From positions 1 through 32,000 of the forward strand of contig CALGKJ010000043.1 in the NCBI GenBank assembly GCA_937930535.1: a stretch of DNA of 32,000 nt, written 5' to 3'. How positions within the stretch are numbered: the stretch's first letter is position 1; the number at the start of each line of letters is the position of its first letter. This document shows, one piece after another, positions 1,205 to 25,862 of this stretch. Source of the DNA: an uncultured Clostridia bacterium. Lineage in GTDB: Bacteria; Bacillota; Clostridia; Lutisporales; Lutisporaceae. Below the pieces are notes generated by a model that was not told where the DNA came from, ran no database searches, and saw only the letters and a list, made by a program, of their open reading frames with translations. Made by a program: the position numbers and the translations under genes.

Positions 1205-2767
1205 ATGGATTTGAAGGGATGGAAAATGTTTGCTGAAATAAAAAGATTTAAGGAAATGGGACTTAATAAATCACAGGTTGAGAGAAAACTTGATATCAAC
1301 TACAAGACCGTTGATAAGTATTGGAATATGAGTCACGAAGAGTATGTTACGCTTTCTCAGAAGTCTAAGTCAAGAAACAAGAAACTTGAAAGATACGAAG
1401 ACGTAATTCTTGACTGGCTCAGGGAATTTAACGATATATCAGCTGCTCAAGTAAATGACTGGATCAAAGAAAAATACAATGATTTCACTATCAAAGATAG
1501 GACTCTTAGAGACTTCATACAGAAGCTGAGAGAAAAGCATAAGATACCTAAACAGGTCTCTAGCAGACAGTACGAAGCAGTATCTGAGCTGCCTATGGGT
1601 TATCAGGCTCAAGTTGATATGGGACAGATATGGATGAAAAGGTACGATGGCGCTAACATCAAGGTATACTGCTTTGCCATGGTACTCTCTCATTCAAGGC
1701 ATAAATTTGTGTACTGGTCAGACAAGCCTTTGACTACCCTGACATTTATTGATATGCATCATAAGGCTTTTGAGTTCTTTGGCGGCATGCCAAAAGAAAT
1801 AGTATACGATCAAGATCGGGTGCTGACGGTAAGTGAAAATCATGGGGACATCATATTTACTGAAGGCTTTGAAATATTTAGAAAGGCGGTGAATTTCAAG
1901 GTGAGGTTCTGCAGAGGCTTTGACCCTGAGAGCAAAGGAAAGGTTGAAGCTGTTGTAAAGTATGTAAAAATCAACTTTGCAAGATACAGAATTTTTAAGA
2001 GTCTAGCCACGCTAAACGATGAAGCAATCAAATAGCTTGATAGAACTGCAAATGCAAAGGTTCATGATATAACCAAAAAAATACCGGCAGAAGTGTATGC
2101 CCTCGAAAAACAACACCTGCTGCCAGCGCCCATAATGTTTAAAACAAAACATTATGAAGATATATTAACCTATCCAGTAAGAAAAGACAATACCATAATG
2201 TACAAGCAAAACAGATATCAGCTTCCAAAAGGAACTTATACTCCTAGCAAGAAGGTGGAACTGATAAAGAAAAATACAAGCATAATTCTAAGAGACATTG
2301 AGACGAAACAGATATATGTCACTCATCCGATATGTCTTGGTAAGGGCAGCCTTGTAAAGATAATACATCCTGAAAGAGATATCAATACGCCTCTGGATAA
2401 GGTTCTAGAAAGTACTTTGAAGGCATTGGGCAGTAGTGAAAACGCAAAGATACTTCTAGAGAATATCCAGCGCGAGAAATCAAGATATATCAAGGATCAG
2501 CTGGGAGTAATATTAAAGTCAGTAGAAGGCTACAGCAATGAGCTGATTCAAAAGGCATTAGGCTATTGTGTAGAACGAAGCTTATGGAGTGCAACAACAT
2601 TTAAGGATGTACTTCAGTATCTTACAGCTGAAAGCAAGGCAATAGTAAAAGATACCACGGCAAACATAGATATCTCTTCAAAGTACAAAGGCTTAAAGCC
2701 TGAGATAAGGCACATCAGTGAATACATATATGCTTTGAAGGAGGATAAGAACAGATGGAAAAACTGA
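1205..2767 (+). pseudogene. istA: IS21 transposase IstA, interrupted by a single in-frame TAG at 2033-2035
   Basis: ORFs 1205-2035 and 2093-2767 are in the same frame (888 nt apart). Read-through gives ...NDEAIK*LDRTANAKVHDITKKIPAEVYALEKQHL. The TAG sits where IstA proteins have the W of W-LDxxANxRxH, so TGG>TAG is the likely change. An N-terminal HTH and a DDE integrase core (QVDMGQ, VYDQDR) are present. Confidence 0.8.
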
Positions 2768-3498
2768 CGCAGATAAAGGAATGTGCAAAGCTTCTAAACC
2801 TGACAAATCTAAAGAGCTATGTAGATATATTCATAGAAAAAGCAGATTTAAGCAATATGACATACCAAGACTTTCTACTTAAGGTGTTAGAAGAAGAACT
2901 GGAGTTGAGAAGCAAAAAGGCTAGGGAGAGACGGTTTAGAAGTGCTGAATTCACTGTGATAAAGAAGATGGAGGACTTTGACATTAACTTTCAACAGGTG
3001 ATTACACAAAAGCAAATAAATAGGCTACTGGAGCTTGAATGGATAGATAGGATGTACAATCTTATCTTCCTGGGGCCACCCGGGGTTGGCAAGACTCATA
3101 TATCAATATCCTTAGGGATTAAAGCTATAGAGGCTGGTTACAATGTAAGCTTTACAACTATGGATAATCTCATGTACTGTCTGAAAACTAAGGAAATATC
3201 GAGAAGAAGCAAAAGTAAAATCAACAGGATACAATCTTCAGAGCTGATCATAATTGATGAGCTTGGGTATCTCCCAATAACAAGAGAGGAAGCGAATCTC
3301 TTCTTTCAGCTAATTTCATCTCTACATGAGCAATCATCATTAATCATCACATCAAACAAGGGCTTTGAGGATTGGACTGAGTTGCTGGGTGATGCAGCAC
3401 TAACAACTGCTGTTTTGGATAGAATAACTTACCGCTGTGAGCTATTTAACATGTCGGGCAAAAGCTATAGGCTGGAAAACCGTCAATCATTGTTCTAA
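2755..3498 (+). CDS. istB: IS21 helper ATPase IstB
   Basis: Walker A GPPGVGKTH and Walker B LIIIDELGY. Overlaps the istA end by 13 nt, as is typical for IS21. Confidence 0.9.
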   Translation: MEKLTQIKECAKLLNLTNLKSYVDIFIEKADLSNMTYQDFLLKVLEEELELRSKKARERRFRSAEFTVIKKMEDFDINFQQVITQKQINRLLELEWIDRMYNLIFLGPPGVGKTHISISLGIKAIEAGYNVSFTTMDNLMYCLKTKEISRRSKSKINRIQSSELIIIDELGYLPITREEANLFFQLISSLHEQSSLIITSNKGFEDWTELLGDAALTTAVLDRITYRCELFNMSGKSYRLENRQSLF

Positions 3499-3986
3499 AT
3501 TATGCGACTGTAAAAAAATCGGTAAAATTATTTGCCGTTTTTTCTCCAAAACTACTTGCCAGTTACACATAAGGGTATACCCTTATGATAGAGCCTTAAA
3601 CCGTGTCAATAGGGTAGTTAATATGAGAAGGTCAACATGCCACGTCCTCAGGAATATATCTACACTTAAGGTCTACCACCCTGGCAAGCTGGACATTTTC
3701 TTTGAAAGATGTCAGAACCATTACTTTTATATTGTTTTTTACAGCATTGGGACTCCAATATATAAAATTTCTGCATATAATCAGTACCGTTTTCATTTTG
3801 CAACCAAGATTTTTCTGATTGTTTCTATTAAAATATCCTACTGACGTTGTTTTTGATTCAGCGATAGTACCCTAAATCATCCCTTCAAAATTCCATTATA
3901 TATATTTTGATTTCTATAAATTATTATACCCTTTTATCTCATTCCAAGGCAATAATTGCTATTTTATGGCTTCTATCATTTGTGCC

Positions 3987-4168
3987 AAAAGGTGTACACC
4001 CCATGTCCAAAAATGCACCCAAATGCACACCCCCGGTACATTTTACCCTAATCCTTCCACAAATACCGACAAAATCCAACAAATAACCCCACATATTTTA
4101 ACACAAAAAATACTAAAAGCCTTTGAAATCAAAGGCTTTGCTACGTATCAACGTTTTATACTTATTTG
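3987..4168. repeat. Left copy of the ~182-bp direct repeat bracketing the island (orphan copy of the ssrA-downstream region)
   Basis: Aligns end to end with 25863-26043 (about 160/182 identical by hand, one 1-nt indel). Contains a copy of the ssrA terminator hairpin at 4116-4139. No tmRNA sequence follows it. Confidence 0.85.
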
Positions 4169-4340
4169 TCTAAGGACAGGCTGTTTGATACAATCTAGCG
4201 GATTTGGGTAACGCTAAATTGTAGGGGTTTCCGCTAATAGGTGCACACCCTACAGCCACATGTTTCTATTGACTTACTATATGGAGTGTGAATAAGAATA
4301 AAATTTTTCCATACCCTTGCATCAATTTATTATTATATGT

Positions 4341-4358
4341 ATAATGCGAAGTTGAATT
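4341..4358. repeat. Copy of the recurring spacer motif ATAATGsGAAGTTG(AATT)
   Basis: ataatgcgaagttgaatt matches 7175-7192 (ataatgggaagttgaatt) at 17 of 18 positions. Confidence 0.6.
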
Positions 4359-4473
4359 GTTCAATAATCTTGAAATCGATATAGGTTATATTCTTTTGCA
4401 TCACTTTGGTTTTTATATATTAACAGTATCTTGGCGTAGTTAAACATTGCTTATGCCCAAAAAACAAAAACGG

Positions 4474-5328
4474 CTATTCTTCATGTATGTCTATAGTCAT
4501 TTCAACTCTAATTCCGCCATGCAAATAGCCTTTATAAACTTGAGCAATATCTTTCATACACCCTAACTCAATTGGGGCATCGTGAAGACGCTTCATTATT
4601 TTTCTTTTTTTCGTCTTTATAATTATTCTAGCTTCACTCTGTTCTTTAAAACTTGTGTTTTTAACCAGTAATTCGTATGGATACTTCTGTCCAAAATCCA
4701 TCCAACCATCATTGCCATATGCTTCAAAATCAAAATATGTCACTTTCCTAATAAGTATTTCTGTATCTTCAAGGCCTATAGATATTAATGTTTTATATAA
4801 CCTAACTTTAAACTCATCAAAGCTGTCTATAATTATTAATGCCGGCTGATCTTCTAATGGAAGTTTTTTTATATCTTCAGGAGACAAGTGATCTGAAAAA
4901 TCTCTGAAATAAGAAGCCGGAATATTTGCAGATACTCTATGTTTTCCTGCACTATCTGGACAAGGAAATAAACTGTGCTTCATTATATAAAAGCAAAAAC
5001 AAGGCAACAGTAAACTTCTCTTATCTTTTAGAAGTAATCTTTGACCAATAACTTCTTTTGTTAGAGGTCTCAAATTAGTATTTAATATGCAAGCAGAGTC
5101 ATATTTTTGATTCAATTCAATTGCTCTTTTATAATCAAGAACATTACAAAAAGCAATTGTGCCTTCATATCCATCTCCACGTCCGTTACCGTATTTTTTC
5201 GAATAATCTATCCATGATTGAGGTTCATTAAGTTTTATTGAACCTTTATTAATGAAATCCTCTGCATATTTTGAACTCGTCAATCTGAACACAGCAGTAA
5301 AATGGTCAGGATTTGCCCATACACCCAT
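4474..5328 (-). CDS. Uncharacterised 284-aa protein, possibly DUF2971-like
   Basis: Long ORF. The ATG at 5326-5328 is preceded by AGAGGGTG, and I prefer it to the GTG at 5337. The N-terminal GSIKLNEPQSWID and C-terminal KNTSFKEQSEARIII segments resemble DUF2971 blocks only loosely. Confidence 0.55.
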   Translation of the reverse strand: MGVWANPDHFTAVFRLTSSKYAEDFINKGSIKLNEPQSWIDYSKKYGNGRGDGYEGTIAFCNVLDYKRAIELNQKYDSACILNTNLRPLTKEVIGQRLLLKDKRSLLLPCFCFYIMKHSLFPCPDSAGKHRVSANIPASYFRDFSDHLSPEDIKKLPLEDQPALIIIDSFDEFKVRLYKTLISIGLEDTEILIRKVTYFDFEAYGNDGWMDFGQKYPYELLVKNTSFKEQSEARIIIKTKKRKIMKRLHDAPIELGCMKDIAQVYKGYLHGGIRVEMTIDIHEE

Positions 5329-5388
5329 TGAAATCACCCTCTTATCTAAATACTTACCATAAAAACAATTTAAAAATTATGGTTTTTC

Positions 5389-5454
5389 GTTCTGTTCAAC
5401 TTCTCAATATCTATGATAATGGGAAGTTGGTAGAAAATTGTTAAACTTCCCATT
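5389..5454. repeat. Recurring spacer module: GTTCTG..CAACTTC..GAAGTTG plus an 11-bp perfect hairpin
   Basis: gttctg 5389-5394, caacttc 5397-5403, gaagttg 5423-5429. aatgggaagtt (5418-5428) is the perfect reverse complement of aacttcccatt (5444-5454). Confidence 0.6.
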
Positions 5455-5530
5455 TTCCATATAATAAAAAGCTCGTTCGCCTTTGGGGAATAAGCCGTAC
5501 ATACATGCACGTGTGGGCTGCTTTACCCGA

Positions 5531-6001
5531 TTAGGATGAAATACGTAATTCCAGTCCTGCTTTAGCCGCAAGATGCTTTATTTTACTGTACATTTCTGGT
5601 TCAAATTTGGGAGAGTAATTTGTTGAGACGCTCGAAAGTCCGGGTCTCAGTTGGTGAACGATTCCACTACTCATAAAATCACTCATAATACCCCTGCATT
5701 GGTATTCTTCTAAGACTAAAACATGCAAATCACATTCACCCATCGGGAATACGATACCAACAGGAATATTATTTTCAAGCAAGATAATTATATCTTGATA
5801 TCCGAAACATCCCTTCGGTAAAGGCTTGCCGTTGAGCATTAAATTCCAGCCATGTGATGTTAATTCTCCATTTCTCAGGTATTGGAATTTACGAGTTTTT
5901 GTATTTTCAATGACATCAAGGATAATCCCAACATCGCGGATTGGTATTCCCACACCGATATTGGCATTTCGGCAAATGAGTTCGAGGGTTTCATTAGTCA
6001 T
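5531..6001 (-). CDS. Uncharacterised 156-aa protein (weak GNAT-like Q-x-R-G motif)
   Basis: ORF with SD AAAGGAG about 9 nt upstream of the ATG. VLVLEEYQCRGIMSDFM resembles GNAT motif A only weakly. Confidence 0.5.
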   Translation of the reverse strand: MTNETLELICRNANIGVGIPIRDVGIILDVIENTKTRKFQYLRNGELTSHGWNLMLNGKPLPKGCFGYQDIIILLENNIPVGIVFPMGECDLHVLVLEEYQCRGIMSDFMSSGIVHQLRPGLSSVSTNYSPKFEPEMYSKIKHLAAKAGLELRISS

Positions 6002-6150
6002 GCCCGTATGCTCCTTTCAAGCTTTCAGGTCAAAGATGATTGATACGGTAAACCACATTTCAATCACACCAATAGTTATGAAATTTGAATAGGACCCCTT
6101 ATCGCACTATCGCGAACGTCCGATTATAATAATACTTAGAACTTAGATCT

Positions 6151-6190
6151 GTTCTGACAACTTCACAGTATTAGCCTAATGTGTAAATGG
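6151..6190. repeat. Diverged copy of the recurring spacer module
   Basis: gttctgaCAACTTCacagTATTAGCCTAATGtgtaaatgg. It shares gttctg..caacttc with 5389-5403, and a 13-mer (6169-6181) with 9301-9313. Confidence 0.55.
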
Positions 6191-6298
6191 ATTATGAAAA
6201 ATTCAAAAGTATAATAGTACATACAAAATTTTTTATGACTTACATTTGGATTTATTGACCAAATAGTTTTATATTTAGTAATTGTTTAGTAATTTATA

Positions 6299-7102
6299 TC
6301 AAAAGAGTCCAAACTTTTTCCTTTTGTAGAATGGTTTAATATTATTTGTGGCATTATGTCCAAAATCAGAATCATACGGTACCAAGTCAATAAGCATACC
6401 TTTTAAGTGACTTATTGCGGCATTACCTATTCCATCAAATATTTCTCTTCTCTCACCAGTAAAATCAACTATTATTAAATAGCTCTGTTCCTCTTCTTTT
6501 ATCATAAGCTGCAAATACGCTGCTTGTACACTTTTTTGTTTCTTCAAATAATCTGAAATGGCATTAACCATTTCTTTAGGATATATACGTGGTTGCCCTA
6601 ATTGAACAGTTGTATCTTTCTTCACCACTTGCTCAATTACGCCCCCCTTTTCACGTCTTTCTTTCTCATCTTTTAATGCTTGTACCATTGTTTTATTAAA
6701 TGTAACATTCCCGCTAAAAGGATTAATTACAAATCCGTCCGAATTTCCTTTTTCATCTAGTACCATTGCAGCTAAATCATCAAAAGTTAATATTAAGGTC
6801 TGCTGATTTTCAACCTTATGCCATTTCCATAACTCTTCCCAATCCGTAAAAGCTAAAAAGAATTGCTGATTAACTGTATTTTCAATTATACTAAAGTTAA
6901 TTATTGTTTTTTCCTTCAAAACTACCTCTTTGCTATCACTTGAAGATTCTGGTATTGGCGAGATAATTACAGGTGAAATAAAATGAGCTTTCATTACCTC
7001 ATTAATTACTTGGTCTTGATTCTCTTTTGTGTTGCTTTCTTGCATTGCTTTTATAGCTACTACTAGCTCTGGATTATATATAGGTTTATTCACATCTATC
7101 AT
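6299..7102 (-). CDS. SseB-family protein (SseB N- and C-terminal domains)
   Basis: FFLAFTDWEELWKW...GFVINPFSGNVTF matches the SseB_N pattern. ...VQAAYLQLMIKEEEQSYLIIVDFTG matches the SseB_C pattern. SD GAAAGGAAAA lies upstream of the ATG. Confidence 0.6.
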   Translation of the reverse strand: MIDVNKPIYNPELVVAIKAMQESNTKENQDQVINEVMKAHFISPVIISPIPESSSDSKEVVLKEKTIINFSIIENTVNQQFFLAFTDWEELWKWHKVENQQTLILTFDDLAAMVLDEKGNSDGFVINPFSGNVTFNKTMVQALKDEKERREKGGVIEQVVKKDTTVQLGQPRIYPKEMVNAISDYLKKQKSVQAAYLQLMIKEEEQSYLIIVDFTGERREIFDGIGNAAISHLKGMLIDLVPYDSDFGHNATNNIKPFYKRKKFGLF

Positions 7103-7146
7103 TAGAATTTTCCTTTCTATTATAAAGCAAATTGATCATTTTGACA

Positions 7147-7192
7147 GTTCTGTTTTGTACTAATTGGTATATGGATAATGGGAAGTTGAATT
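7147..7192. repeat. Copy of the recurring spacer module
   Basis: gttctg 7147-7152 and ataatgggaagttgaatt 7175-7192, with the same spacing as in 5389-5429 to within 1 nt. Confidence 0.6.
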
Positions 7193-7452
7193 TCTTCACC
7201 TTTGATGTATATTGATATAACATGAATTTCATTTTAACCATTGTCTTATATAAGTTGCAATTAATCTATTACATTACACTATTTTCCTTATAGGTCAATG
7301 CAAGGGCTGATTCAAAAGCCAATGTAACGTATTTTTTGCAACTTATATAGTAAACTATAAAGGTTGTTACAATAAATTCCTATTCTCATATGTTAGCACA
7401 ACCACTATGACTTTTTACAATGCCCATAGTGTATGTACTCATTTTTACTTTC

Positions 7453-9156
7453 CTATTTTATGGCTAATATTTCATCATAAAAAAGCTTGGCTAAATAGTC
7501 TGTCCTTTTGTCAATATCAAATTTATGCTTCGATTTATATTTCTTTGCAATGCCCCTAACAGTGTAAAAGCCAGATTCCTCATATATTAATATTTTCTCA
7601 TTTAACGGTTTTTTCTTACATCTTTCATTCAATGTTTGTTCCAAGGGTATTAAATTTCCTATTTTAGCGTTATCTTCATGCTCACTATCTGGATAGATAT
7701 GTTCAATAGTATAATCAATATCCAGATTGCAATTAGATAAATGTTTTTCCAAAACCTCAAGTACAAGTTTAGCACGTTGTTTAGCTGCACTATCTTTATA
7801 TAAACCCCAATGATTTGACCATCCAATATTCCTAAATGCATTTATAAACCAATCAACACTTGGAATTTTAGATTTTAAATTACTTATGAACTCATCTAAA
7901 AGTTCATCGGTGCATCTAGCTTCCAATAATGGAGCATATTTATATATTACATCAGTCAGCCTATTCGATTTTTCTTTTCCAATTATGGTATAGCATAGAA
8001 AAAATTTATATAAGAAATTAAGAACAAAATTGTAGCGATCTTCTGAAATTTTCTCAAGTTCACGCTGATGCATGAGGGTTAGCAGTATTGGTCTAAACTG
8101 TTCTTGACGCTTGGTTTTGAAAAAGGAAAAAACAAAAAATTCCATTTGAGTGCAAATTTGAACATCATCATCGTCTAATATCCTTGGTTTATAGATTTTA
8201 GAATAGTATTTGCATTTTAATTGAATATCTCTTAGTAATTTCTCCATATCCTTATTATCAGAAGATTTACGTATGTTTTTATATGGCTCTTTACGTAATT
8301 CTTCTGATGTTGCATATCTGTGTGGTGCATAGTGCTTTATGAAATTGGACATTCCTTTTCCAAGTTCATCTTCCATTTGCTCCCATGCTTTTTTAACTTT
8401 GTCTCTGTTTTCTATAGGTTGTATATATCTCATAATATAATTTTTTAGTAAGTCGTGATCTTCCAAGGGTTGTCCTCTAGCATTTAGTATTTCAAAAATT
8501 GTGTACGAGTCTTCTTCGGTAGTTGCTCTTATATGGACATAATTCATCCCAACCAGTGCATCCAAGAGTGAAACTATTGCATTGCCAGGATTTTCTTTAT
8601 TAGAGGATAAGTATTCATTCAACTGGTCGAAGAAAAACTTCACAGCATCGCCTATGATCTTGTCTTTTCTTTTTGACACTGTATTTAGATTTATGAATGA
8701 GGAAATAGACAAATATTTGATATCATCTGTTGGCATATCGATAAGAGAATCTATCATTTTCTCAAATGATTCATGATAGTCAGCATTAAATATATGGTTA
8801 TTTCTATTTTTTCTGTCGGTAGTTATCAAATACTTAACACATCCATCAAAGTCATCAATCATCCCACGAGTTTTCATAATAAACATTATTGCTAATAAGA
8901 AGATGGAAACAGTCATCATGCGCTGCTGCCCATCAATTATTGTATATTGTTCTAAGCCGCTAATGGCACCTTCTTCTTTTAATACAATACTACCAATAAA
9001 ATGTGGAATTTGGTTTTCAGAAACAAATACAACATCCGTCCACAAGTCTTTCCAATTATCTTTCTTCCAAACATATTTTCTTTGATTTCTTGGAATACGG
9101 TAAACTGCATTATTTAGCAAATTTGATATAGTTTCTTGGCGTGCATCAAAACACAT
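7453..9156 (-). CDS. DUF262/DUF1524 (GmrSD-like) nuclease, candidate type IV restriction enzyme
   Basis: N-terminal DUF262 motifs IPRNQRKYVW and IIDGQQR. C-terminal DUF1524/HNH-like block YTIEHIYPDS...IGNLIPLEQTLNERCKKKPL. I prefer the ATG at 9154-9156 (AGGAGGAG SD) to the upstream ATG at 9186. Confidence 0.8.
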   Translation of the reverse strand: MCFDARQETISNLLNNAVYRIPRNQRKYVWKKDNWKDLWTDVVFVSENQIPHFIGSIVLKEEGAISGLEQYTIIDGQQRMMTVSIFLLAIMFIMKTRGMIDDFDGCVKYLITTDRKNRNNHIFNADYHESFEKMIDSLIDMPTDDIKYLSISSFINLNTVSKRKDKIIGDAVKFFFDQLNEYLSSNKENPGNAIVSLLDALVGMNYVHIRATTEEDSYTIFEILNARGQPLEDHDLLKNYIMRYIQPIENRDKVKKAWEQMEDELGKGMSNFIKHYAPHRYATSEELRKEPYKNIRKSSDNKDMEKLLRDIQLKCKYYSKIYKPRILDDDDVQICTQMEFFVFSFFKTKRQEQFRPILLTLMHQRELEKISEDRYNFVLNFLYKFFLCYTIIGKEKSNRLTDVIYKYAPLLEARCTDELLDEFISNLKSKIPSVDWFINAFRNIGWSNHWGLYKDSAAKQRAKLVLEVLEKHLSNCNLDIDYTIEHIYPDSEHEDNAKIGNLIPLEQTLNERCKKKPLNEKILIYEESGFYTVRGIAKKYKSKHKFDIDKRTDYLAKLFYDEILAIK

Positions 9157-9286
9157 AACATCACTCCTCCTGATATTTAAACACAATCGCTATCTATTAA
9201 TTGATTCAATCAATGTTAATCTAATTTTCTATCATTGTACATATTGTTAAGCTCAAATTACACACTATTGCTATAATATTGTAATC

Positions 9287-9322
9287 TGTAAACTTACCAT
9301 TATTAGCCTAATGAGAAGTTTG
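9287..9322. repeat. Copy of the recurring spacer module (imperfect palindrome)
   Basis: AAACTTACCATTA-ttagcc-TAATGAGAAGTTT (9290-9321). ctaatgagaagtttg parallels ataatgggaagttg in the other copies. Confidence 0.55.
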
Positions 9323-9415
9323 CTGTACTGCCCATAATTATAATTCGATAGTGGCAACACATCCTCCTCGATTTGCTCATTAGTCACTTTACCAAGACAG
9401 TACAGTCTAATTGTA

Positions 9416-10462
9416 TTAGGTGATAATACTTGCAGCGAGGGCTTTTTTCCAAAATAATAAATTCCTAATATCTAAAATATCGTAGTCTTCCTCTAAAGCG
9501 ATATAGCTGTCTTCATCAAGGCCCTCGATGCATTTTTCCAGTTTTTCTAAACTTTCTAGTAGACTTCTCATATTCTTGGTATTATCCCACAATATGCTCC
9601 TATCTTCATCAATATATCCGCTTGCTCTAGCTGCTTCTATCTCGCGTTTATATGCATAATATTCTACTTCTAGATTGTGGTTAGTGAAATCATTAAATAC
9701 AAAGGTCACTATAACCGAATCAAATTTATTGAGCATATTACTTACTTCTTTTGTGATAGCTTCAAATTCATCTACCTTCGAGAGTAAGCCTACTTCCTTC
9801 TTGGAGATTTTTATATCTTCTGCATCTCTTTTACCCTCTAATACCTTAATATAATTTGTCATTTTTTCATTCTCTTCAAGCAACGTATCATTAACTAGTG
9901 TTAACTCATTCAATTCTTCCTCTAGTTTCATTATTGTATCTTTACTAATAGGCTCTGGAAATGGATTATTCACCAGAAAATTATCAACAAATTTTAGAAA
10001 TTTCCTTTTCTGGGTAGTCCATCTGGCTTGCGCAGGTTTATCTACATCAGTAAATTTACTTGTTAGTGAGTCATAAATATTATCTAAACCAATAGAAGAA
10101 TTTAACTTCTCCACTTGTTTAACTTCAGCTAAAACTCCTACAGTTCTGAAATTAATAGGCTCGATTAGCATTGGAATAACGGTGGCATCCGTTGCCCAGG
10201 AAGCACCCATTTCATTCATACAAATCTCACTCGACTTATAGTTAGAAGTTATAATTAAAATAATAACCTCTACGGTCAAGAGTCCTTCCCTTAGGAATTT
10301 ACGCCAGTCAACTCCAGACTCGATACCCATTCCTTCGCCTGAAGTATAAAGTATTTGGTTATGATGATATCCTAAACCGCCAATCAAAATCTCATTCACA
10401 AAAGCATCGACTATTTCTTTATCAGCCGAGGAATGACTTACAAAAACTCTTTTTTTTGTCAT
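9416..10462 (-). CDS. TIR-domain protein with a long helical/coiled-coil C-terminal region
   Basis: N-terminus KRVFVSHSSADKEIVDAFV... then ITSNYKSSEICMNEMGASW, which is the TIR SxxCxxE block holding the putative catalytic Glu. Residues ~170-348 are E/K/L-rich and helical. GGAGG SD upstream. Confidence 0.75.
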   Translation of the reverse strand: MTKKRVFVSHSSADKEIVDAFVNEILIGGLGYHHNQILYTSGEGMGIESGVDWRKFLREGLLTVEVIILIITSNYKSSEICMNEMGASWATDATVIPMLIEPINFRTVGVLAEVKQVEKLNSSIGLDNIYDSLTSKFTDVDKPAQARWTTQKRKFLKFVDNFLVNNPFPEPISKDTIMKLEEELNELTLVNDTLLEENEKMTNYIKVLEGKRDAEDIKISKKEVGLLSKVDEFEAITKEVSNMLNKFDSVIVTFVFNDFTNHNLEVEYYAYKREIEAARASGYIDEDRSILWDNTKNMRSLLESLEKLEKCIEGLDEDSYIALEEDYDILDIRNLLFWKKALAASIIT

Positions 10463-10534
10463 TTGATTAACCTCCGTTCCGATTAATATCTAAAAATTTT
10501 AATAATCTAGTCCTTCTCAAATAAATTGTATCTA

Positions 10535-10559
10535 TACCATTATTTCCGAGCTTCCCATT
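10535..10559. repeat. Half-site copies of the spacer motif (opposite orientation)
   Basis: ataccattatttccgagcttcccatt contains taccatta and cttcccatt, like the arms at 9294-9302 and 5446-5454. Confidence 0.4.
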
Positions 10560-10680
10560 GTAGACAAAACGCGTATGTTCAAAAGGAACATTACACCTCA
10601 AGTTCTAAAATTCTACATTTAACATTATAATTCCTTCTATAAGCCCCATAATTTTACACCAAATTTCGACATTAGCGCAA

Positions 10681-10731
10681 ATAAAAAAGCCGCAGATAGT
10701 TATGTGTTAATATCACATAACTATCTGCGGC
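10681..10731 (-). terminator. Rho-independent terminator of the recombinase operon
   Basis: Perfect 18-bp stem gccgcagatagttatgtg / cacataactatctgcggc with a 7-nt loop. On the minus strand it is followed by TTTTTTAT. Confidence 0.85.
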
Positions 10732-10768
10732 TCTCATTTATCATATAAATAAACTATAAATATTGCTA

Positions 10769-12355
10769 TCAAATATCCCAATCCATCTCCATACCATCCT
10801 TAAACACAAATGTCACCTTCTCCTTACTATGAACCACTACCTTATCAACAGTACCATTCCAAAGCTCCTCATCAAATTCAGTAATCACCCCATCCCTTTG
10901 CTCCAGTTCCTTAATAAAATCCAAAATCCTTTCGCCCTTAGCCCTTCTTTCTACCCTCTTATCCTCTATTTCCTCAAGTCCTCGCTGTATATTCTCATAT
11001 CTATCTTTTAAACTATTGTACCTTTCCTCATATTCAGCTTGGTCTAAAGCACTATTAGCATTTTCCTCCACACATTTTCTAAGCATTTCAGCAGCTATCA
11101 CCAATTCACTTTGAAGCCTAGTGCCTTCACTATCAAGCTTTGTAGTATCAGTCAAGGCTTCAATTATCTCATAATAACTTTTCAATATTTCTTCCTTATT
11201 ATTAATAAGACTATTGAACACTCCTACAAAGGCTTCCTTTATAGTATCCTCATATAAATGCGGTGTTGTACACTTTTTATCATTCTTAAACTTATCATTG
11301 CACTGCCATATTACCCTTCGGTATTTACTGTTAGAATGCCATGTCTTGCTACCGTAGAAGCTTCCGCATTCACCGCAGACTATGGTTCCTGAAAAGCAGC
11401 TGTTGATTCTCTTGCATCCCTTGATATTTTCCAACCTCTTTAGCTCATGCTGTACTAAATCAAATATTTCTGGACTAATTATTGCTTCATGGCTGTTTTC
11501 TATATAGTATTGAGGTATTTCTCCTTCATTTATTTTCTTTTTCTTAGTTAGAAAGTCAATTGTAAAGCTCTTTTGTAGTATAGCCGAGCCTTTGTATTTT
11601 TCATTCTGTAATATGCTTCTTATGGTACTAATGCTCCATTTCTTTTTTCCTGCTGGTGTTGGTATTCCTTCTTCTGTTAATAGCCTTGCTATTGCTGATG
11701 GTGTCTTTCCTTCAAGGAACAGTCTATATATCGTCCTTACTACCTTTGCTTCCTTTTCTACTAATTTAGGCAGGTCATCTTCTCCCTTTTCAAAGCCTAA
11801 AAAGTGCTTATAGGGAAGGCTTACCTTTTCATCAGCGAATCTCTTTCTCATTCCCCAAGTAACATTCTCGCTTATTGACCTTGATTCTTCTTGTGCAAGG
11901 CTTGACATTATTGTGATAAGTAACTCTCCTTTGCTGTCAAGGGTATAAATATTTTCTTTTTCAAAGTATACTTCTACCCCTTTTTCTTTTAGTTGACGAA
12001 CTATCATCAGGGTATCTACGGTATTCCTAGCAAAGCGACTGACCGATTTTGTTATTATTAAATCAATTTTACCTGCTAGTGCATCAGCTATCATTCTGTT
12101 AAAGCCTTCTCTTTTTTTAGTGCTTGTTGCGGAAATTCCTTCATCATAATATACTTCAATAAAAGTCCATGCAGGATTTGCTTTAATATGTCTTGTATAG
12201 TGGTCTACTTGTGCTTCAAAGCTTGACAGCTGTTCTTCATTATCGGTGGAAACCCGTGCGTATGCGGCTACTTTCTTTGTTGGTGCTATTGTTGGTATTG
12301 CTTCTATTCTTCTAGCTGTCGGCTGTATTACTGTTACTGCTCTTGCTGTGCTCAA
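10769..12355 (-). CDS. Large serine recombinase (second of a tandem pair)
   Basis: Resolvase catalytic N-domain VAAYARVSTDNEEQLSSFEAQ...ITKSVSRFARN. Recombinase domain and Cys-rich zinc ribbon (CGECGSFYG...WQCN...C). TTG start at 12355 with GGGAGGAG SD. Overlaps the upstream recombinase by 44 nt. Confidence 0.9.
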   Translation of the reverse strand: MSTARAVTVIQPTARRIEAIPTIAPTKKVAAYARVSTDNEEQLSSFEAQVDHYTRHIKANPAWTFIEVYYDEGISATSTKKREGFNRMIADALAGKIDLIITKSVSRFARNTVDTLMIVRQLKEKGVEVYFEKENIYTLDSKGELLITIMSSLAQEESRSISENVTWGMRKRFADEKVSLPYKHFLGFEKGEDDLPKLVEKEAKVVRTIYRLFLEGKTPSAIARLLTEEGIPTPAGKKKWSISTIRSILQNEKYKGSAILQKSFTIDFLTKKKKINEGEIPQYYIENSHEAIISPEIFDLVQHELKRLENIKGCKRINSCFSGTIVCGECGSFYGSKTWHSNSKYRRVIWQCNDKFKNDKKCTTPHLYEDTIKEAFVGVFNSLINNKEEILKSYYEIIEALTDTTKLDSEGTRLQSELVIAAEMLRKCVEENANSALDQAEYEERYNSLKDRYENIQRGLEEIEDKRVERRAKGERILDFIKELEQRDGVITEFDEELWNGTVDKVVVHSKEKVTFVFKDGMEMDWDI

Positions 12356-13661
12356 TGTGACTCCTCCCTTCTAAATACTTCAATTGTCTTTCTCTAGCCT
12401 TCTGTCTTGCTTCCTCACTCCAGCTTTCACTTCTTGATTTATATTCCCATTGTTTTTGTATGGCTTGTCCGTTGTTAAGAATAAATATAAGTGTGTTATC
12501 GTTAGGCACTTGTATTTCCTTTATTTTCTTTTCAAATACAGCTTCATCAAATTCATTAAGCTCTAGTATTTCGGTGCTTAGTGATATTAATATGTCTTCT
12601 GGTATCTGCTTTGAGGGACAACTGCTCTTTCCATATTTCCAATAGGTCGAACAAATCCATAAGGCTTTATTGTTCTTGACCTTATGCTTATATTTTTTTC
12701 CGCATATTCCGCAGATTATTTTGCTTGTAAAAGGGTATTTTATTTTTTCTTTTTTACCTGAGTATTTTTCACTATTTCTACTCATTATTTCTTTTGCTTT
12801 TTGAAAGGTTTCTTCATCTATTATTGCAGGATGTGTTCCTTCTGCATAATACATAGGAAGATTTCCTTTATAAAATACTAAGCTTTTGGTTAGGTGGTCT
12901 TTTACGTATTTTTTCTGTAGAAGGGCGTTTCCAGCGTATTTCTCATTTTTAATAATGTCTCCTACTCTTTCTCCGTTCCATATACCGCCTCTGAGTTTTG
13001 GTATGTTCATAGATCTCAGCTTATTGGCTATTAGTGTAGTTCCCATTCCTTCTATGTAGTCCTTAAATATCATGCGGACTATTTGTGCTTCATCTTCTTG
13101 TATTTGGATTATTCCCTTTTTGATTCTATATCCATACATAAATCTAAGATTAACAAGCTCTCCTTCTGCAAAGCCCTTTCTTATTCGCCATTTACAGTTT
13201 TCACTTACTGAGCGGCTTTCTTCTTGAGCAAAAGAAGCGAGGATAGTAAGCATAAGCTCGCCATCCCCGCTAATACTGTGAATATTCTCTTGTTCAAAAT
13301 ACACATCTATATTTAGACTCTTAAGCTCTCTTACTACCTCAAGCATAGTTAAGGTATTTCTTGAAAGTCTAGATATTGATTTTGTTATTATCATATCTAT
13401 TTTACCATTTCTGCAATCATTAATCAGTCTTTGAAATTCTGGTCTGTGTTCCTTTGTTCCAGTCAGTGCTTCATCTGCATATACACCTTTATATTCCCAG
13501 CCTCTTTGATTTTGTATTAGTTCGCTGTAGTAGCTGATTTGTGCTGAAAGAGAATGAAGCATTGCATCCTTGCCGCTAGATACCCTGCAGTATGCGGCTA
13601 CTCGCTTTCTTGTGGGTATTTTCGGTATCAAAGGCTCTATTTTCTGAACTATTCTATGCAT
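12312..13661 (-). CDS. Large serine recombinase (first of a tandem pair)
   Basis: VAAYCRVSSGKDAMLHSLSAQ...ITKSISRLSRN catalytic domain. Recombinase domain and zinc ribbon (CGICGKKYK...WICS...C). SD AAGGGGGA upstream. Confidence 0.9.
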   Translation of the reverse strand: MHRIVQKIEPLIPKIPTRKRVAAYCRVSSGKDAMLHSLSAQISYYSELIQNQRGWEYKGVYADEALTGTKEHRPEFQRLINDCRNGKIDMIITKSISRLSRNTLTMLEVVRELKSLNIDVYFEQENIHSISGDGELMLTILASFAQEESRSVSENCKWRIRKGFAEGELVNLRFMYGYRIKKGIIQIQEDEAQIVRMIFKDYIEGMGTTLIANKLRSMNIPKLRGGIWNGERVGDIIKNEKYAGNALLQKKYVKDHLTKSLVFYKGNLPMYYAEGTHPAIIDEETFQKAKEIMSRNSEKYSGKKEKIKYPFTSKIICGICGKKYKHKVKNNKALWICSTYWKYGKSSCPSKQIPEDILISLSTEILELNEFDEAVFEKKIKEIQVPNDNTLIFILNNGQAIQKQWEYKSRSESWSEEARQKARERQLKYLEGRSHIEHSKSSNSNTADS

Positions 13662-16877: not shown

Positions 16878-19800
16878 TCATTTTACCTTAATCTCTTTAA
16901 AAGTATCAATCCTATCTACACCGATACTTCTTGCTTTATCTCCAACAGTATTTAATCCTCCATTTTGCAATAGCTCATTATCAATCAACTTTTGTTGAGC
17001 AGTTCTAGTAGCCGTTCCACTTTTCACTTCAATTCCAACAATTGAGCCGTCTGGTTTTCTAGCTACAATATCATACCTTCTCAAAGTACCATCTGCTCCC
17101 CTTACTGATATTTCTGTACCGAGTATATCATATCCTTTATATGTTGCGTCATTTTTTATGATATCCATAGCTTTATCAACTCCAGGAGTCCCAGGTACTG
17201 TTCCAGTCTTTCCTGCGAACCGACCTTTTGAATCTCTTATGCTACCATCTGGGTACTGCTTTAGTCCATTAGCTTCAGCCGCCCCCTTAGTACTCTTACC
17301 TATACCCTTACCTTCGTTTATTAATTTAGTTACATTCTTGCTTGGCTCTCTTCTTGTATCTACAACTTCAGCAATATTTCCTTTATACTCATACATTTCG
17401 CCAACTTTAACAGGTTTTGTTTTAGGTACTCCTAAGTCCTCTTTTTCAACCCATTCGACAGTTCCATCATATAACAATATCCATGGATTTATTTCGCCGT
17501 GAATTTGCAAGCGTTTTCCTTTACGTTCTAGCTTAAATTTCTTAAACCTGAACCTTTGCAAAAGCTTAGCAATTAAATTATCTAGCTTTTTGACACCTTT
17601 TATAAGTCCCTTCTGTAAGCTCTTTATTATTAGCTTGCCGTTTTGTATTATCATACTACCGCTTCGAGATACTAACTTTGTACCTGATTTTAGTAGTTTT
17701 TTGATGCTTTTTGCTGCTTTTTTTATACCCTCTTTTGTTCTTGTAGCAGCAGCTTTCATTTTTGTCTTTACTGATGATTTTGCACTCTTTAATCCCGCTC
17801 CTGCTTTCTCTAATCCTTTTCCTACTCCCCTAAAGATTAACTCCATTGCTAATTCTACAAGCCCCATTGCTAATGCTGTTGCAAGTGATACAGCAGCAAC
17901 TGGTATATTCTTCGCCCATCCCTGAGTCAGATATTTTTCTACGTATACTGCCGCTTTTGTTATAGTGTCTACTATAGATACTACTGCGGATGCATTCATT
18001 ATATTTACTATTGCACTTATGATAGTAGGCAGAGCAGCTGTTATTGCACCTCCAGTTATAATTTCTAGTACCACAATTCCAGCTAATGCACCGATTACTC
18101 CAAGTAGAATTTTAGCCCAGTTGTCTTTTAGCCATTTTATTACAAATTGTTTTATTTGGTCAAGTACTTTTGCACCGTTTTCAGCACGCATTTTCACTTC
18201 GTCTACAATGTTCATATCTGTTTTTTTGTTTGCTTTGTCCACGTCAAATTCATTTGCTATTGTATCTATTGTATATGGATTATTACTTCCTTGTATTTCT
18301 CTTACTTCTCCATCACGTAGATTTAGACTTTCAATGAATTCAGGATCCATTTGTCCAGACATTATAGGGTCAACCGCTATGTCATCTTCTGTTAACTTTT
18401 CATTTTCTCCAGTGGACTCATTATTTATTGTCTCAGTTTCAGCTATATCTTCGTTTTCAGCTTGTCCCATGGGTTTTGATAAATCTACACCTATTAACTG
18501 TTCCCATATAGCACCTTCTATGTGAGATAATGATTCTTTTGCTGCCTGACCCAAAGCTCCTATACGCTCCATTATGTCTGCATAATTTCCAGTGATAATG
18601 TCACCAATTATAGTAAATATACTGTTATACAAGGATTGGATTGCACCAAAAAGTCCATCCAGCGTTGATGCGAGAAAATCAAGTACTTTAGTTATGCCTT
18701 TTTGAAGCATATCAGCGGCTGTATTTACAAACTTTATAGCATTATTTACTTTCTCATCAATTTTGCTGCATATTTTCTGAGCTATCTTAGGGAATTTTGC
18801 AAATACCACTTTTACAAGTTCTTTTAAGAATTTGCCTAGTTCTTTTATGATGTTAACAATTAGCTTACGCCCAGCCTCAATAATAGTTTTGACAACTTGC
18901 TTAGCTTTATCAAATATAATTTTTACTGCTTTACGCAAAACATTGTATATAGCATTTATTGCGTTCTTAATTCCATCAAGAAACTTCTTAGCTTTTTCTT
19001 TAACCCAGCTCCAGAATCCGCCTTTCTCTTTTTCTTTTTCCCCATCCTGCCGTTTCTTATCTGCGTCCTTTTTAGCTTTTTTAGTTTCATTTTGTGCGTC
19101 TTTTTCTGCATTTACTAGTTCCTTTTTAACTTCACTTTCTTTTTGTGTCTTAATATTTCCTATCTCACTTTTCTTACTTTCGGATGCCTTATTTGCCAGT
19201 TGATCATATTCTGCAACTGAATTGTTTATTTCAGTTCTCCATTCACCTCTTAACTTATCTACTTCACTTTTTGTACTTGCTTGCTCTGCAAGCTGTTTTT
19301 CCCTTGTTTCAAGTTTTTGCTGTTCAATTTGCGAATCTGTATCTGCTTTTGTAGCAATTACATCAGTATCAAATTTTTCTTTGCCTTTCTGATATTCATT
19401 TCTCTTTTCTGTCATTTGCTTATTAAGTCCCGGACTTAATGACTTATTCAGATGTACTGCTATATCATTTGAAATAGGTGTTGTTTTTGGCACTTGTACA
19501 GAAGGTGAAGTCACTGCTTGTATACCTTTTTGTGACTTCAACATTGTAGTGGTTTCCTGAGGATATATGTTATTCTCACCGAAGTCACTATTTACAAGAC
19601 CTAATTCTGCTTGCTTAGCAGCTTTCACATTTTGGTCAGACTCAGTTTTAAACCCAGTTATCTGTGATGGATCTGCTTCTCCATCCATACTGATTTTGGG
19701 GGACTGTGTAGATAGTGCTCGTGCTTCAGCCATTATTGTATCCGGGTCAGGCTCACCATTTGTATTTGTTTTAAATTCACTTAGCATTCCCTCATACAAT

Positions 19801-21861: not shown

Positions 21862-22188
21862 TTATGCTTCCCCCATATTTTCTTCTACCCCTGGCATTGC
21901 TGTATTAAGTGCTTCATTGATGGCTATACCTAATCTTTCTAAATCATTGACACCTAGCTTCTCACCTACTTCCATTAAGGTAGCAGTATCATCTTCAACC
22001 TTTACCGCCGCATATATCAAGGCTCGTATTGCTTTAATCTTCATGTTTTGTAAATCCTCAAAGGCTTTGTTTAGGTCCCCATAGATTTCCTCAAGCTCGC
22101 AAAAGACGTTCATATTGAGCTTTAGGCTGTATTCCGTATCACCTAATGTGAACTTGATACCTTTGTTTTTTAAGTCCACTGCTTTCAT
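21862..22188 (-). CDS. Phage tail assembly chaperone
   Basis: MKAVDLKNKGIKFTLGDTEYSLKLNMNVFCELEEIYGDLNKAFEDL... is typical of siphovirus tail chaperones. GGAGGTAAAACAA-ATG at 22186-22188 is preferred to the upstream ATG at 22266. Confidence 0.65.
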   Translation of the reverse strand: MKAVDLKNKGIKFTLGDTEYSLKLNMNVFCELEEIYGDLNKAFEDLQNMKIKAIRALIYAAVKVEDDTATLMEVGEKLGVNDLERLGIAINEALNTAMPGVEENMGEA

Positions 22189-23684: not shown

Positions 23685-24162
23685 CTACCATATAATTCTA
23701 CAATCAACAATATCTACAGCATCCGCATCTCCAACAAAACGATAATTCCCATCATAGTCTCTAGCATAGAAAGTCCCCTTTAGCTTTGCACTCTTTGGCT
23801 GTGGCTTCTCCCCTTCAACAGCCATACAAATCTATACTTCCCATTGTTCTTCTTAGATTAAAACGCTAGTGCAATAGTAGGCGGTATATTATCCTTGCTC
23901 TCAATCAAATCCCCTTTATAACCTTCGCTCTGCTCTAAAGGTATAACTGATTAATTTCTATTTCAACATCCACACCTTCAAAGGATGTTACAACATCTTC
24001 AACGCTATCTTCAGAGTAAATGTTCTCCGAATTTGACTTAGGTGTGAGCTTGGCATTTATTGCCCTTTCAAGCTTTTTAGGTACATTATAAGTAGCTCCT
24101 GTATTATAATCCTTAGTAAGTGCCGCTATATGTATATCTCTCAATCCTATTTGTCTTGCCAT
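23685..24162 (-). pseudogene. Phage major tail protein (phi13-like), multiply frameshifted
   Basis: N-terminus MARQIGLRDIHIAALTKDYNTGATYNVPKKLERAINAKLTP... The rest is recoverable only by switching frames: ..LEQSEGYKGDLIESKDNIPPTIALAF*, ..SKKNNGKYRFVWLLKG.., ..EGEKPQPKSAKLKGTFYARDYDGNYRF... Confidence 0.7.
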
Positions 24163-25692: not shown

Positions 25693-25862
25693 ACAAAGCA
25701 CCTCCACTTATACAAACTCGTATTAATTATACCATAAAAACCCAACAATAAACTTATAGTCTTTTCTTAGGTAGCAATATGTTAAACTGAGAATATATTG
25801 TCGAAATCCATATGCTCAGCATACACAAACATAACAAAACTCACCAGCATTCCATATACGCT

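Follow-up and report, generated by a model that had tools for sequence, protein, structure and literature searches.

Palindrome-bounded gene cassettes, apparently mobile, in Clostridia

Five genes of defence type lie one behind the other on the minus strand of a chromosomal stretch of an uncultured Clostridia bacterium (Lutisporaceae; GenBank assembly GCA_937930535.1, contig CALGKJ010000043.1, positions 1 to 32,000; this 32,000-nt stretch is hereafter the window), and related inverted sequences recur in the spacers between them. Why should unrelated single genes share such a spacer? The initial annotation offered two readings, i.e. (i) a shared operator or promoter that co-regulates the genes or (ii) a cassette junction left by a recombination mechanism that stacks single genes in an integron-like way. 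Its observation holds, and its interpretation is supported in part: the second reading is supported, while the first is not supported as the primary explanation. Our results suggest that the genes are separate mobile modules bounded by a conserved 14-base inverted arm, the paired form of which is a 32-base palindrome. The same junction separates unrelated gene modules in other Clostridia, so it looks like an integron-like or dif-module-like cassette system in Gram-positive bacteria, of which we found no description in the literature searched.

A recurrent 14-nt arm between the five genes

We first re-examined the genes and the motif. All five minus-strand genes and their domains were confirmed (Table 1). 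The spacer lengths given in the initial annotation mix alternative start codons (194 and 229 nt use the GTG at 5337 and the TTG at 9186), which is immaterial. The motif copies are also where they had been placed. A search with ATAATGSGAAGTTG, allowing up to 2 mismatches, gives 8 hits in the window against 0.63 expected (0 of 100 shuffles reach 8), and seven of the 8 lie at 4341-9303. A 17-nt weight matrix built from 20 arms gives 8 half-sites (consensus ATAATGGGAAGTTG) of at least 16.8 bits, all within 4340-9323. By contrast, window shuffles give 0.08 per 32 kb, and 159.8 kb of control Clostridial DNA gives 0 at 16 bits or more. All 8 half-sites are intergenic although 78% of the 6.3-kb array is coding. 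The palindromes at 5397-5429, 5418-5454 and 9290-9321, the reported identical 13-mer (part of a 29-nt repeat at 6153-6181 and 9285-9313) and GTTCTG-N-CAACTTC are all present, while the half-site reported at 10535-10559 is weak.

Table 1. Features of the cassette array and of the surrounding island, in window coordinates. L numbers denote loci outside the window.
Coordinates	Strand	Feature	Observations
4232..4250		19-mer CGCTAATAGGTGCACACCC, repeated at 25859-25877; likely ends (att) of the ~21.6 kb island that carries the array as its cargo region	Window 4104-4250 is homologous to the distal end of the cargo region in L040 and L041
4325..4354		Junction A, the 3'-most end of the array: degenerate arm (4325-4336), centre ATGT (4337-4340), strong arm ATAATGCGAAGTTG (4341-4354)	21.8-bit half-site; homology with L011 ends exactly at 4341
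4341..5410	-	Module M1 (1070 bp): unknown 284-aa gene at 4474-5328 (no Pfam hit), bounded by inverted 14-nt arms at 4341-4354 and 5397-5410	89.7% identical over 1074 nt to L011 5424-6490, in a different array; flanks on both sides unrelated; no target-site duplication
5397..5429		Junction B1: CAACTTCTCAATAT-CTATG-ATAATGGGAAGTTG, an atypical 5-nt centre	Half-sites of 18.8 and 22.5 bits
5416..5456		Empty mini-module: two inverted arms 13 nt apart with no gene (includes the 11-bp perfect palindrome at 5418-5454 of the initial annotation)	A comparable degenerate arm pair fills the 52-nt gap in L011 at 5371-5422
5443..5474		Junction B2: arm AAACTTCCCATTTT, centre CCAT, degenerate arm ATAATAAAAAGCTC	17.3-bit half-site
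5461..6171	-	Module M2: unknown 156-aa gene at 5531-6001 (no Pfam hit)	5' arm at 6158-6171 with the extension CAGAAC; 3' arm degenerate
6158..6189		Junction C: CAACTTCACAGTAT-TAGC-CTAATGTGTAAATG	Second arm matches 9 of 14 positions; shares a 29-nt repeat with junction E
6176..7170	-	Module M3: SseB-like gene at 6299-7102 (Pfam SseB and SseB_C)	Both arms degenerate; boundaries inferred from junctions C and D
7147..7188		Junction D, composite: remnant of the 5' arm extension (GTTCTG), CTAATTGGTAT, centre ATGG, strong arm ATAATGGGAAGTTG (7175-7188)	23.8-bit half-site; the same composite linker, CCAT-ATACCCATTAG-GCTA, occurs in L011 (twice) and in L022
7175..9303	-	Module M4 (2129 bp): GmrSD-type gene at 7453-9156 (GmrSD_N+C), bounded by arms at 7175-7188 and 9290-9303	Homologues of 77% and 70% identity elsewhere lack the arms
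9290..9321		Junction E: full site AAACTTACCATTAT-TAGC-CTAATGAGAAGTTT	Arms of 17.8 and 19.2 bits; 96.7% identical over 30 nt to the Syntrophomonas site at L006 1600-1629
9308..10561	-	Module M5: TIR / SpbK-like gene at 9416-10462 (TIR_2)	Arms at 9308-9321 and a weak arm at 10548-10561
10548..10579		Junction F, the 5'-most site of the array: weak arm GAGCTTCCCATTGT, centre AGAC (GTCT on the coding strand), then non-arm sequence	11.9 bits; a GTCT centre also marks the first recognisable site in L006, L007, L022 and L030
10687..10733	-	Intrinsic terminator of the serine-recombinase operon, separating that operon from the array	20-bp stem followed by a T-run
10769..13661	-	Two large serine recombinases (449 and 528 aa), the integrase module of the surrounding island and not the array's recombinase	Resolvase + Recombinase + Zn_ribbon_recom domains; homologues of about 75% identity end prophage-like elements in L040 and L041, whose cargo lacks the motif

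We then searched for the paired form elsewhere. Two abutting arms form CAACTTCyCATTAT-N4-ATAATGrGAAGTTG, and near-perfect copies occur in 8 genome loci, all with identical arm spacing and 7 of them assigned to Clostridia lineages, and in 16 metagenome loci, 13 of which keep that spacing. The copies often form arrays between same-strand accessory or defence genes, with sites in successive spacers in L005, L006, L007, L011 and L022. The cargo differs between arrays and is rich in defence genes, including GajA/GajB (Gabija), QatA/C/D, GmrSD, TIR, FRG and KAP NTPase, together with GNATs and ANT(6). Scans of viral contigs with two motif patterns found nothing, and a BLAST search of a consensus site against plasmid and phage collections found no full site. 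The window's own proteins, in exact look-ups, occur only in their source and in one Logan run (ERR9287890), which precluded a strain-level comparison of this exact array.

The initial annotation had named a dispersed genome-wide REP/MITE-like repeat as a finding that would overturn it. On the DNA scanned, this is not what the data show: there are no copies in the control DNA, at most one strict hit per contig and 1-2 per genome, and the sequence is conserved across lineages, although these counts do not include a weight-matrix scan of any complete genome.

Where homology between arrays breaks

Two results point to recombination junctions. First, module M1 recurs in the array of L011, and the homology (window 5410-4341 = L011 5424-6490) begins and ends at the inner ends of its two arms. 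Second, four contigs (L021, L027, L029 and L032) share one flank plus the site and diverge just after the arm into four different genes. However, M1 is the only module found moved as a whole between arrays; in a search for a second one through GmrSD homologues, those of 77% and 70% identity lack the arms. The motif is not attached to the genes themselves, because close homologues of genes 1 and 4 in five other contexts (L012, L016, L018, L036 and L039) lack it.

The sites are polar with respect to gene direction. Arms facing gene 5' ends are preceded by GCTA, GTCT or AGCA in 17 of 28 cases, while arms facing gene 3' ends are preceded by ATGG or ATGT in 11 of 25 cases. Inverted 14-nt arms bound 11 modules, and none of these 11 modules with two recognisable arms has a target-site duplication.

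We also looked for a linked enzyme or regulator. Among the window ORFs of at least 60 aa that were scanned (those left out are mostly short ones overlapping larger genes), no Phage_integrase domain was found, and a Pfam search of more than 100 ORFs in 4-10 kb of flank at the other loci revealed no recombinase linked to any array, no Phage_integrase domain among the top families and no recurrent recombinase or regulator family. A 331-aa first cassette in L029 has only a sub-threshold Xer-like N-terminal match and no PDB relative.

A proposed recombination mechanism

The best explanation is that the recurring sequence is the junction of a cassette array. In this view, each gene, or each small operon in other genomes, sits in a discrete module that starts with ATAATGnGAAGTT and ends with the inverse, AACTTCnCATTAT; where two modules abut, the two arms plus a 4-nt centre form the 32-bp palindrome, which can be read as 11-6-11, the architecture of a dif or Xer site. 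A site-specific recombinase acting in trans would bind the arms and exchange strands in the centre, so that modules could be excised, inserted and reassorted between arrays and genomes. In the window, the array fills the cargo region of a prophage-like island that is integrated by its own pair of large serine recombinases downstream of the tmRNA gene.

Our analysis itself demonstrates that the sites are non-random and strictly intergenic, that the same site with the same spacing occurs in arrays of several Clostridia lineages, that homology between arrays breaks at the arms, that alternative genes follow the same site in related contigs, that the sites are polar and that no linked recombinase is present among the ORFs scanned. 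It is only by inference that we assign the enzyme to the Xer-type tyrosine recombinases, either host XerC/XerD-like or a dedicated paralogue, with any binding or recombination by XerC/XerD equally inferred, and that we consider the arms a possible source of promoter hexamers.

We hold recombination-site-bounded mobile cassettes with reasonable but not high confidence. Some observations do not fit easily: the centres differ between sites of one array (ATGT, CTATG, CCAT, TAGC and ATGG), whereas simple integration into a like site would leave identical centres on both sides of a module, and many sites have only one good arm. The Xer assignment is more tentative. It rests on the match of each arm (ACTTCCCATTAT) to the XerC-side arm of Firmicutes dif, ACTTCCTATAAT, at 10 of 12 positions in the same register relative to a 4-nt centre (dif sequences from the supplement of PMC3025954). 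However, no XerD-type arm is present, and the resemblance (by our estimate, roughly 1e-3 to 1e-2 after multiple comparisons) could be coincidence.

Alternative readings and known systems

Two alternatives remain possible but unlikely, and about equally so. In the first, the palindrome is an operator or promoter element for a transcription factor that co-regulates island genes and marks module edges only because each gene travels with its own regulatory region. The arms do contain -10-like (TATAAT) and -35-like (TTGAAn) hexamers; in four alternative cassettes a -10-like hexamer (TATAAT, TATGAT, TATGAT and TATGGT) lies 16-17 nt downstream of the arm's terminal TTCnnn; in L006 the arm sits 17 nt upstream of the start codon, leaving no room for another promoter; and a 14-N4-14 palindrome would suit a dimeric regulator. 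A secondary promoter role is thus possible. However, arms also sit, inverted, at the 3' ends of modules, where they carry the best-conserved variant, TATGGATAATGGGAAGTT, and distances from arm to gene range from -41 to more than 260 nt. A promoter consensus scan of the region shows no enrichment (35 found against 36.9 expected), and a Fur box, a Cheo box and a SinR site do not fit the 14-N4-14 palindrome. Together with the motif-free homologues and the absence of a recurrent regulator family among the ORFs scanned, this speaks against the operator model, which also does not explain four different genes following one identical site.

In the second, each module is a non-autonomous transposon, a mobile insertion cassette or MITE with cargo, bounded by 14-bp terminal inverted repeats and mobilised in trans by a transposase that preferentially inserts next to existing copies. 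Modules M1, M4 and M5, the 41-bp empty element and modules in L006, L007, L011 and L022 have inverted terminal arms, M1 moved as an arm-to-arm unit, and mobile insertion cassettes are a described class in Bacillus. Against this stand the lack of target-site duplications and the fixed spacing of abutting arms, which points to the palindrome itself as the functional unit. Lone full palindromes also occur with no second end within 8 kb (L003, L004 and L010). No transposase with these ends was seen in any locus; the IS21 in the window and the IS91 in L003 are each seen in a single locus only.

It is very unlikely that the palindromes are att sites of the neighbouring serine recombinases, with the array an SCC-like tandem accretion of small elements. 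The array does abut the recombinase operon, sites of large serine recombinases are roughly 32-50 bp imperfect palindromes around a central dinucleotide, and SCC composite islands in staphylococci are stacked in this way. However, the cargo regions next to homologues of the pair in Clostridium cellulovorans (L040) and Clostridium sp. FP1 (L041) lack the motif, the other arrays have no serine recombinase within reach, and the 19-mer direct repeats of the island are unrelated to the motif. Least likely is a REP-like structural or RNA-level element (hairpin, terminator or mRNA stabiliser): full sites lie between co-directional genes and would fold into a 14-bp stem with a 4-nt loop, but no T-run follows the sites, none was called as a terminator, most sites in the window are single arms that cannot form a hairpin, no copies occur in the control DNA, the sequence is conserved across lineages, unlike species-specific REPs, and Rfam gave nothing at gathering threshold in seven array loci, the only hits in the window array being a far-sub-threshold miRNA match, on both strands, at the recombinase terminator hairpin.

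We then compared the array with four described systems. The dif (pdif) modules of Acinetobacter plasmids are likewise discrete accessory-gene modules, found in series and in different contexts (as M1 is here), bounded by short recombinase-type sites and without a recombinase of their own, so that XerC/XerD is presumed to act in trans. Their sites have an 11-6-11 architecture (28 bp, with an 11-bp XerC arm, a 6-bp spacer and an 11-bp XerD arm), which is only a possible reading of the sites here. The sites described here are instead near-symmetric, with two XerC-like arms and no XerD-like arm, chromosomal and in Clostridia, with genes all in one orientation; pdif sites alternate between C/D and D/C orientation on Rep_3 plasmids, while here polarity lies in the centre sequence and follows gene direction. 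Integron arrays, including sedentary chromosomal integrons that hold defence genes (10.1101/2024.07.02.601686), share same-orientation arrays of mostly single-gene, compact cassettes, junctions exactly at cassette boundaries, different first cassettes after the same site and defence-rich cargo. By contrast, no intI gene was found here, each cassette has arms at both ends, and the site is a 32-bp near-perfect palindrome without bulges, lacking the R''-L''/L'-R' structure and extrahelical bases of attC sites (57-141 bp), as judged without an attC covariance model.

Chromosomal dif (in Firmicutes, ACTTCCTATAAT-ATAT-ATTATGTAAACT) and integrative elements exploiting Xer (IMEX) resemble the array in arm sequence and in tandem stacking between dif-like sites. 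However, the array lies inside a tmRNA-adjacent island and not at the single dif site of a replication terminus: cumulative GC skew is monotonic across the window and does not change sign, and there are several sites per genome, one genome having sites on two contigs (L005 and L010). The arms are also symmetric. Mobile insertion cassettes (MIC231 and relatives) also carry a passenger gene between short inverted repeats with no transposase inside, but here there are no target-site duplications and no cognate IS, and abutting ends keep a fixed spacing.

A bolder reading, not excluded but rather unlikely on present evidence, is a Gram-positive counterpart of the integron, i.e. a dedicated cassette-capture system with its own 32-bp palindromic site and an as yet unidentified recombinase encoded elsewhere in the genome, which would assemble and shuffle anti-phage and resistance genes in Clostridia chromosomes and within their prophage-like islands.

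Firmicutes lack complete integrons (PMC4889954), and dif modules have been described essentially only on Acinetobacter plasmids. A cassette system in Clostridia would give a mechanism for how single defence and resistance genes, such as the GmrSD, TIR, Gabija, Qat, ANT(6) and GNAT genes seen here, are collected and exchanged across Gram-positive anaerobes, and it would also provide a simple sequence tag for finding new defence genes in these genomes.

Genomic context of the gene array

Reading on the minus strand, the window holds RNase R, a PAS/MCP chemoreceptor, SmpB and the tmRNA gene, and directly downstream of the tmRNA gene lies an insert of about 21.6 kb. The insert is bounded by two copies of a 19-mer, CGCTAAWAGGTGCACACCC, that is present three times in total (starting at 3983, 4232 and 25859), and the ∼185-nt sequence immediately downstream of the tmRNA gene is present twice with 89% identity. 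The 19-mer copies that bracket the island are the likely att of the two-serine-recombinase element. The insert carries a HEPN protein, a ParE/Phd pair, a 1349-aa open reading frame (ORF) with no Pfam or NCBIfam match, a SymE-like toxin, a small HTH protein and two large serine recombinases, followed by a strong terminator and then by the five genes of interest. An IS21 copy lies beyond the insert, and a direct repeat links the smpB start region to sequence downstream of rnr.

Homologues of the recombinase pair at about 75% identity sit at the end of prophage-like elements in Clostridium cellulovorans (with tail, holin and amidase genes; locus L040) and Clostridium sp. FP1 (with Bro-N/ANT-type genes; locus L041). 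In both, the arrangement is SHOCT, recombinase, recombinase, followed by a few kb of variable cargo, and window positions 4104–4250 are homologous to the far end of that cargo region. The five genes therefore occupy the cargo region of an island that the two serine recombinases integrate, and the likely att sequence of these recombinases is unrelated to the motif between the genes.

Features of the array, the island and its surroundings (window coordinates)
Feature	Coordinates	Content or remarks
IS21 copy	1205-3498	beyond the insert
Second copy of tmRNA-downstream sequence	3983-4179	diverged (89%) copy of the ~185-nt sequence; copies of this sequence and of the 19-mer lie within 3983-4250 and 25859-26043
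19-mer	4232-4250	CGCTAAWAGGTGCACACCC; end of the insert
Module M1	4341-5410	unknown 284-aa gene
Mini-module	5416-5456	no gene, 41 bp
Module M2	~5461-6171	unknown 156-aa gene
Module M3	6176-~7170	SseB-like gene
Module M4	7175-9303	GmrSD-type gene
Inverted repeat in M4	7247-7349	29 nt, 83% complementary, 45-nt loop; downstream of the GmrSD stop codon
Module M5	9308-10561	TIR / SpbK-like gene
Weak copy	10546	11.9 bits
Terminator	10687-10733	strong; follows the recombinases
Large serine recombinase	10769-12355	
Large serine recombinase	12312-13661	
1349-aa ORF	16878-20927	between a DUF4304 protein and unannotated sequence
Weak half-site	22142-22158	14.2 bits
Weak half-site	23832-23848	12.7 bits; intergenic
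19-mer	25859-25877	CGCTAAWAGGTGCACACCC; end of the insert
tmRNA gene	26042-26407	
SmpB	26581-27099	
Direct repeat, first copy	27024-27123	100 nt, 76%; spans the start codon and upstream region of smpB
Direct repeat, second copy	29279-29378	about 100-200 nt downstream of the rnr stop codon (rnr on the minus strand)
RNase R	29489-31606	

Distribution and anatomy of the inverted arms

The initial annotation described a recurring inverted-repeat module in the spacers between five same-strand genes, and this observation holds. The sequence ATAATGSGAAGTTG with up to 2 mismatches occurs 8 times against 0.63 expected, and seven of the 8 hits are in the spacers. A 17-nt weight matrix gives 8 half-sites of at least 16.8 bits, all of which lie in 4340–9323 and all of which are intergenic although 78% of the array is coding. 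Shuffles give 0.08 such sites per 32 kb, and a control set of 159.8 kb of real Clostridial DNA, fetched by protein and not by motif, gives none at 16 bits or more. Two of the weak copies lie elsewhere in the island and may be relics of older junctions.

Oriented copies show a 14-nt arm, ATAATGnGAAGTTG, and arms occur as inverted pairs around each gene. Where two good arms abut they are 4 nt apart (5 nt at 5411–5415), which gives a 32-bp palindrome, CAACTTCyCATTAT-N4-ATAATGrGAAGTTG; an example of a full site is CAACTTCCCATTAT-AGAA-ATAATGGGAAGTTG. The inverted repeat inside M4 contains ATAAGTTGCAA / TTGCAACTTAT, which resembles the arm core, and it may be a decayed empty module or a hairpin.

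We then searched for the same site elsewhere. One scan of 185,579 species genomes with AACTTNNCANTAT-N{3,6}-TAATGNGAAGTT returned 8 loci, all with the same spacing. Seven are assigned to Clostridia lineages: a Clostridiaceae MAG (CAWBTU01), C. polyendosporum (JCM 30710), Clostridium sp. Enrichment4 (two contigs), Syntrophomonas, a Peptococcaceae MAG and Tepidibacter (sp. Z1-5). The eighth is a Patescibacteria MAG (locus L008, identical to L026), which carries a single copy of the palindrome (AAACTTCTCATTAA-ACTA-ATAATGAGAAGTTA, L008 5176–5205) between thrS and a small ORF, with no array; this could be that organism's own dif-type site. A metagenome scan gave 16 more loci, 13 of them with the same spacing.

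The weight matrix then revealed arrays in five of the loci that carry the site: (i) in L005, a contig of Clostridium sp. Enrichment4, sites lie in most spacers between ANT(6)/VanZ, a GNAT, a hydrolase/creatininase pair, a second GNAT and a TPR gene; (ii) in L006, from Syntrophomonas, sites lie around an AAA_13 ATPase and two unknown genes; (iii) in L007, they lie between DUF3825, FRG and an unknown gene; (iv) in L011, they lie between Mrr_cat, an unknown gene, FRG, a homologue of gene 1 (the M1 gene) and a type I restriction-modification system; and (v) in L022, they lie around a four-gene module and two single genes. PADLOC finds QatA, QatC and QatD among the scanned cargo ORFs of L022, and we infer from gene sizes that the four-gene module is the Qat system. 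Homologous HNH-like proteins (43% identity) lie next to sites in two unrelated arrays (L011 1134–2090 and L031 2229–3224) and represent a second cargo family shared between arrays. Also, the two contigs of Clostridium sp. Enrichment4 that carry sites share 94–95% identical non-coding segments of 50–170 nt near their arrays (L005 3977–4424 and L010 2426–3068).

Homology breakpoints at the sites

Several lines of evidence suggest that the sites are recombination junctions. The closest relative of gene 1 outside the source (P0002, 89% identity) lies in the L011 array, where DNA homology runs from window position 5410 to 4341 and from L011 position 5424 to 6490, at 89.7% over 1074 nt, that is, from the inner end of one arm to the inner end of the other, while the sequence on both sides is unrelated. 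Furthermore, four metagenome contigs (L021, L027, L029 and L032) share a flank plus the full site CTGAACTTTCCATTAT-AGCA-ATAATGKGAAGTTC and diverge completely right after the arm into four different genes. These are the only whole-module transfer and the only four-way alternative-cassette comparison that were found.

The motif is not a property of the genes: gene-1 homologues in loci L012, L016 and L018 and GmrSD homologues in loci L036 and L039 lack it. In L012 (9976–10868; also in L013–L015), a gene-1 homologue with 89% DNA identity sits without the motif next to a truncated resolvase gene and downstream of pyruvate phosphate dikinase, and the homology ends exactly at the stop codon, which suggests a different capture mechanism there. 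None of the 11 modules with two recognisable arms has a target-site duplication. The interpretation in the initial annotation, which offered either a shared operator or promoter or an integron-like cassette junction, is partly supported: the evidence favours the junction, whereas a shared operator or promoter is not supported as the primary explanation and a secondary promoter role is possible.

Candidate recombinase, related systems and possible roles

No recombinase or regulator family recurs within 4–10 kb of the sites, and relatives of the adjacent serine recombinases lack the motif. The enzyme therefore probably acts in trans. One of the four alternative first cassettes (L029 873–1868) encodes a 331-aa protein whose N-terminus weakly resembles the SAM-like domain of XerC/XerD (E about 5e-4, far below cut-offs), but its recombinase-like motifs look degenerate and it has no PDB relative.

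Read as 11-6-11, the site has the dif architecture. Each arm (ACTTCCCATTAT) matches the XerC-side arm of the Firmicutes dif consensus (ACTTCCTATAAT-ATAT-ATTATGTAAACT; PMC3025954 supplement) at 10 of 12 positions in the same register, for which a binomial estimate is about 2e-4 before, and about 1e-3 to 1e-2 after, allowing for the comparisons made. The arms of loxP and FRT are also similar. This makes a Xer-type tyrosine recombinase the leading candidate, as for Acinetobacter pdif modules, although there is no XerD-like arm, and the centres differ between sites of one array, which a simple model does not predict. In brief, the non-random intergenic placement of the sites, their recurrence with the same spacing in other Clostridia, the breaks in homology at the arms, the polarity of the sites and the lack of a linked recombinase family in the flanks scanned are direct results of our analysis, while the trans-acting Xer-type enzyme, its action on the site and any promoter activity of the arms are inferred from sequence alone.

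The closest analogues are Acinetobacter dif modules and integron cassette arrays. Defining features of each were tested: compared with integrons, there is no intI among the ORFs scanned and no attC structure; compared with Acinetobacter dif modules, there is no C/D alternation or plasmid backbone. The array is also not an IMEX stack at a terminus, not a transposon with target duplications and not a known RNA family. Gene cassettes bounded by recombination sites are known from other systems, but full-text searches found no description of such arrays in Clostridia or Firmicutes, and complete integrons are reported absent from Firmicutes. We regard these arrays as a variant of recombination-site-bounded gene cassettes.

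The arms contain TATAAT-like and TTGAAn-like hexamers. In the four alternative cassettes, a -10-like hexamer lies 16–17 nt after the arm end, and in L006 the arm lies 17 nt from the start codon. The junction may therefore contribute promoters. The sites are also polar, which is a further line of evidence that they are recombination junctions: arms facing gene starts are preceded by GCTA, GTCT or AGCA, whereas arms facing gene ends are preceded by ATGG or ATGT. GTCT tends to mark the first site of an array, and a composite linker, CCAT-ATACCCATTAG-GCTA, recurs in L011, L022 and the window junction between M3 and M4. Such polarity would explain why all cassettes point the same way.
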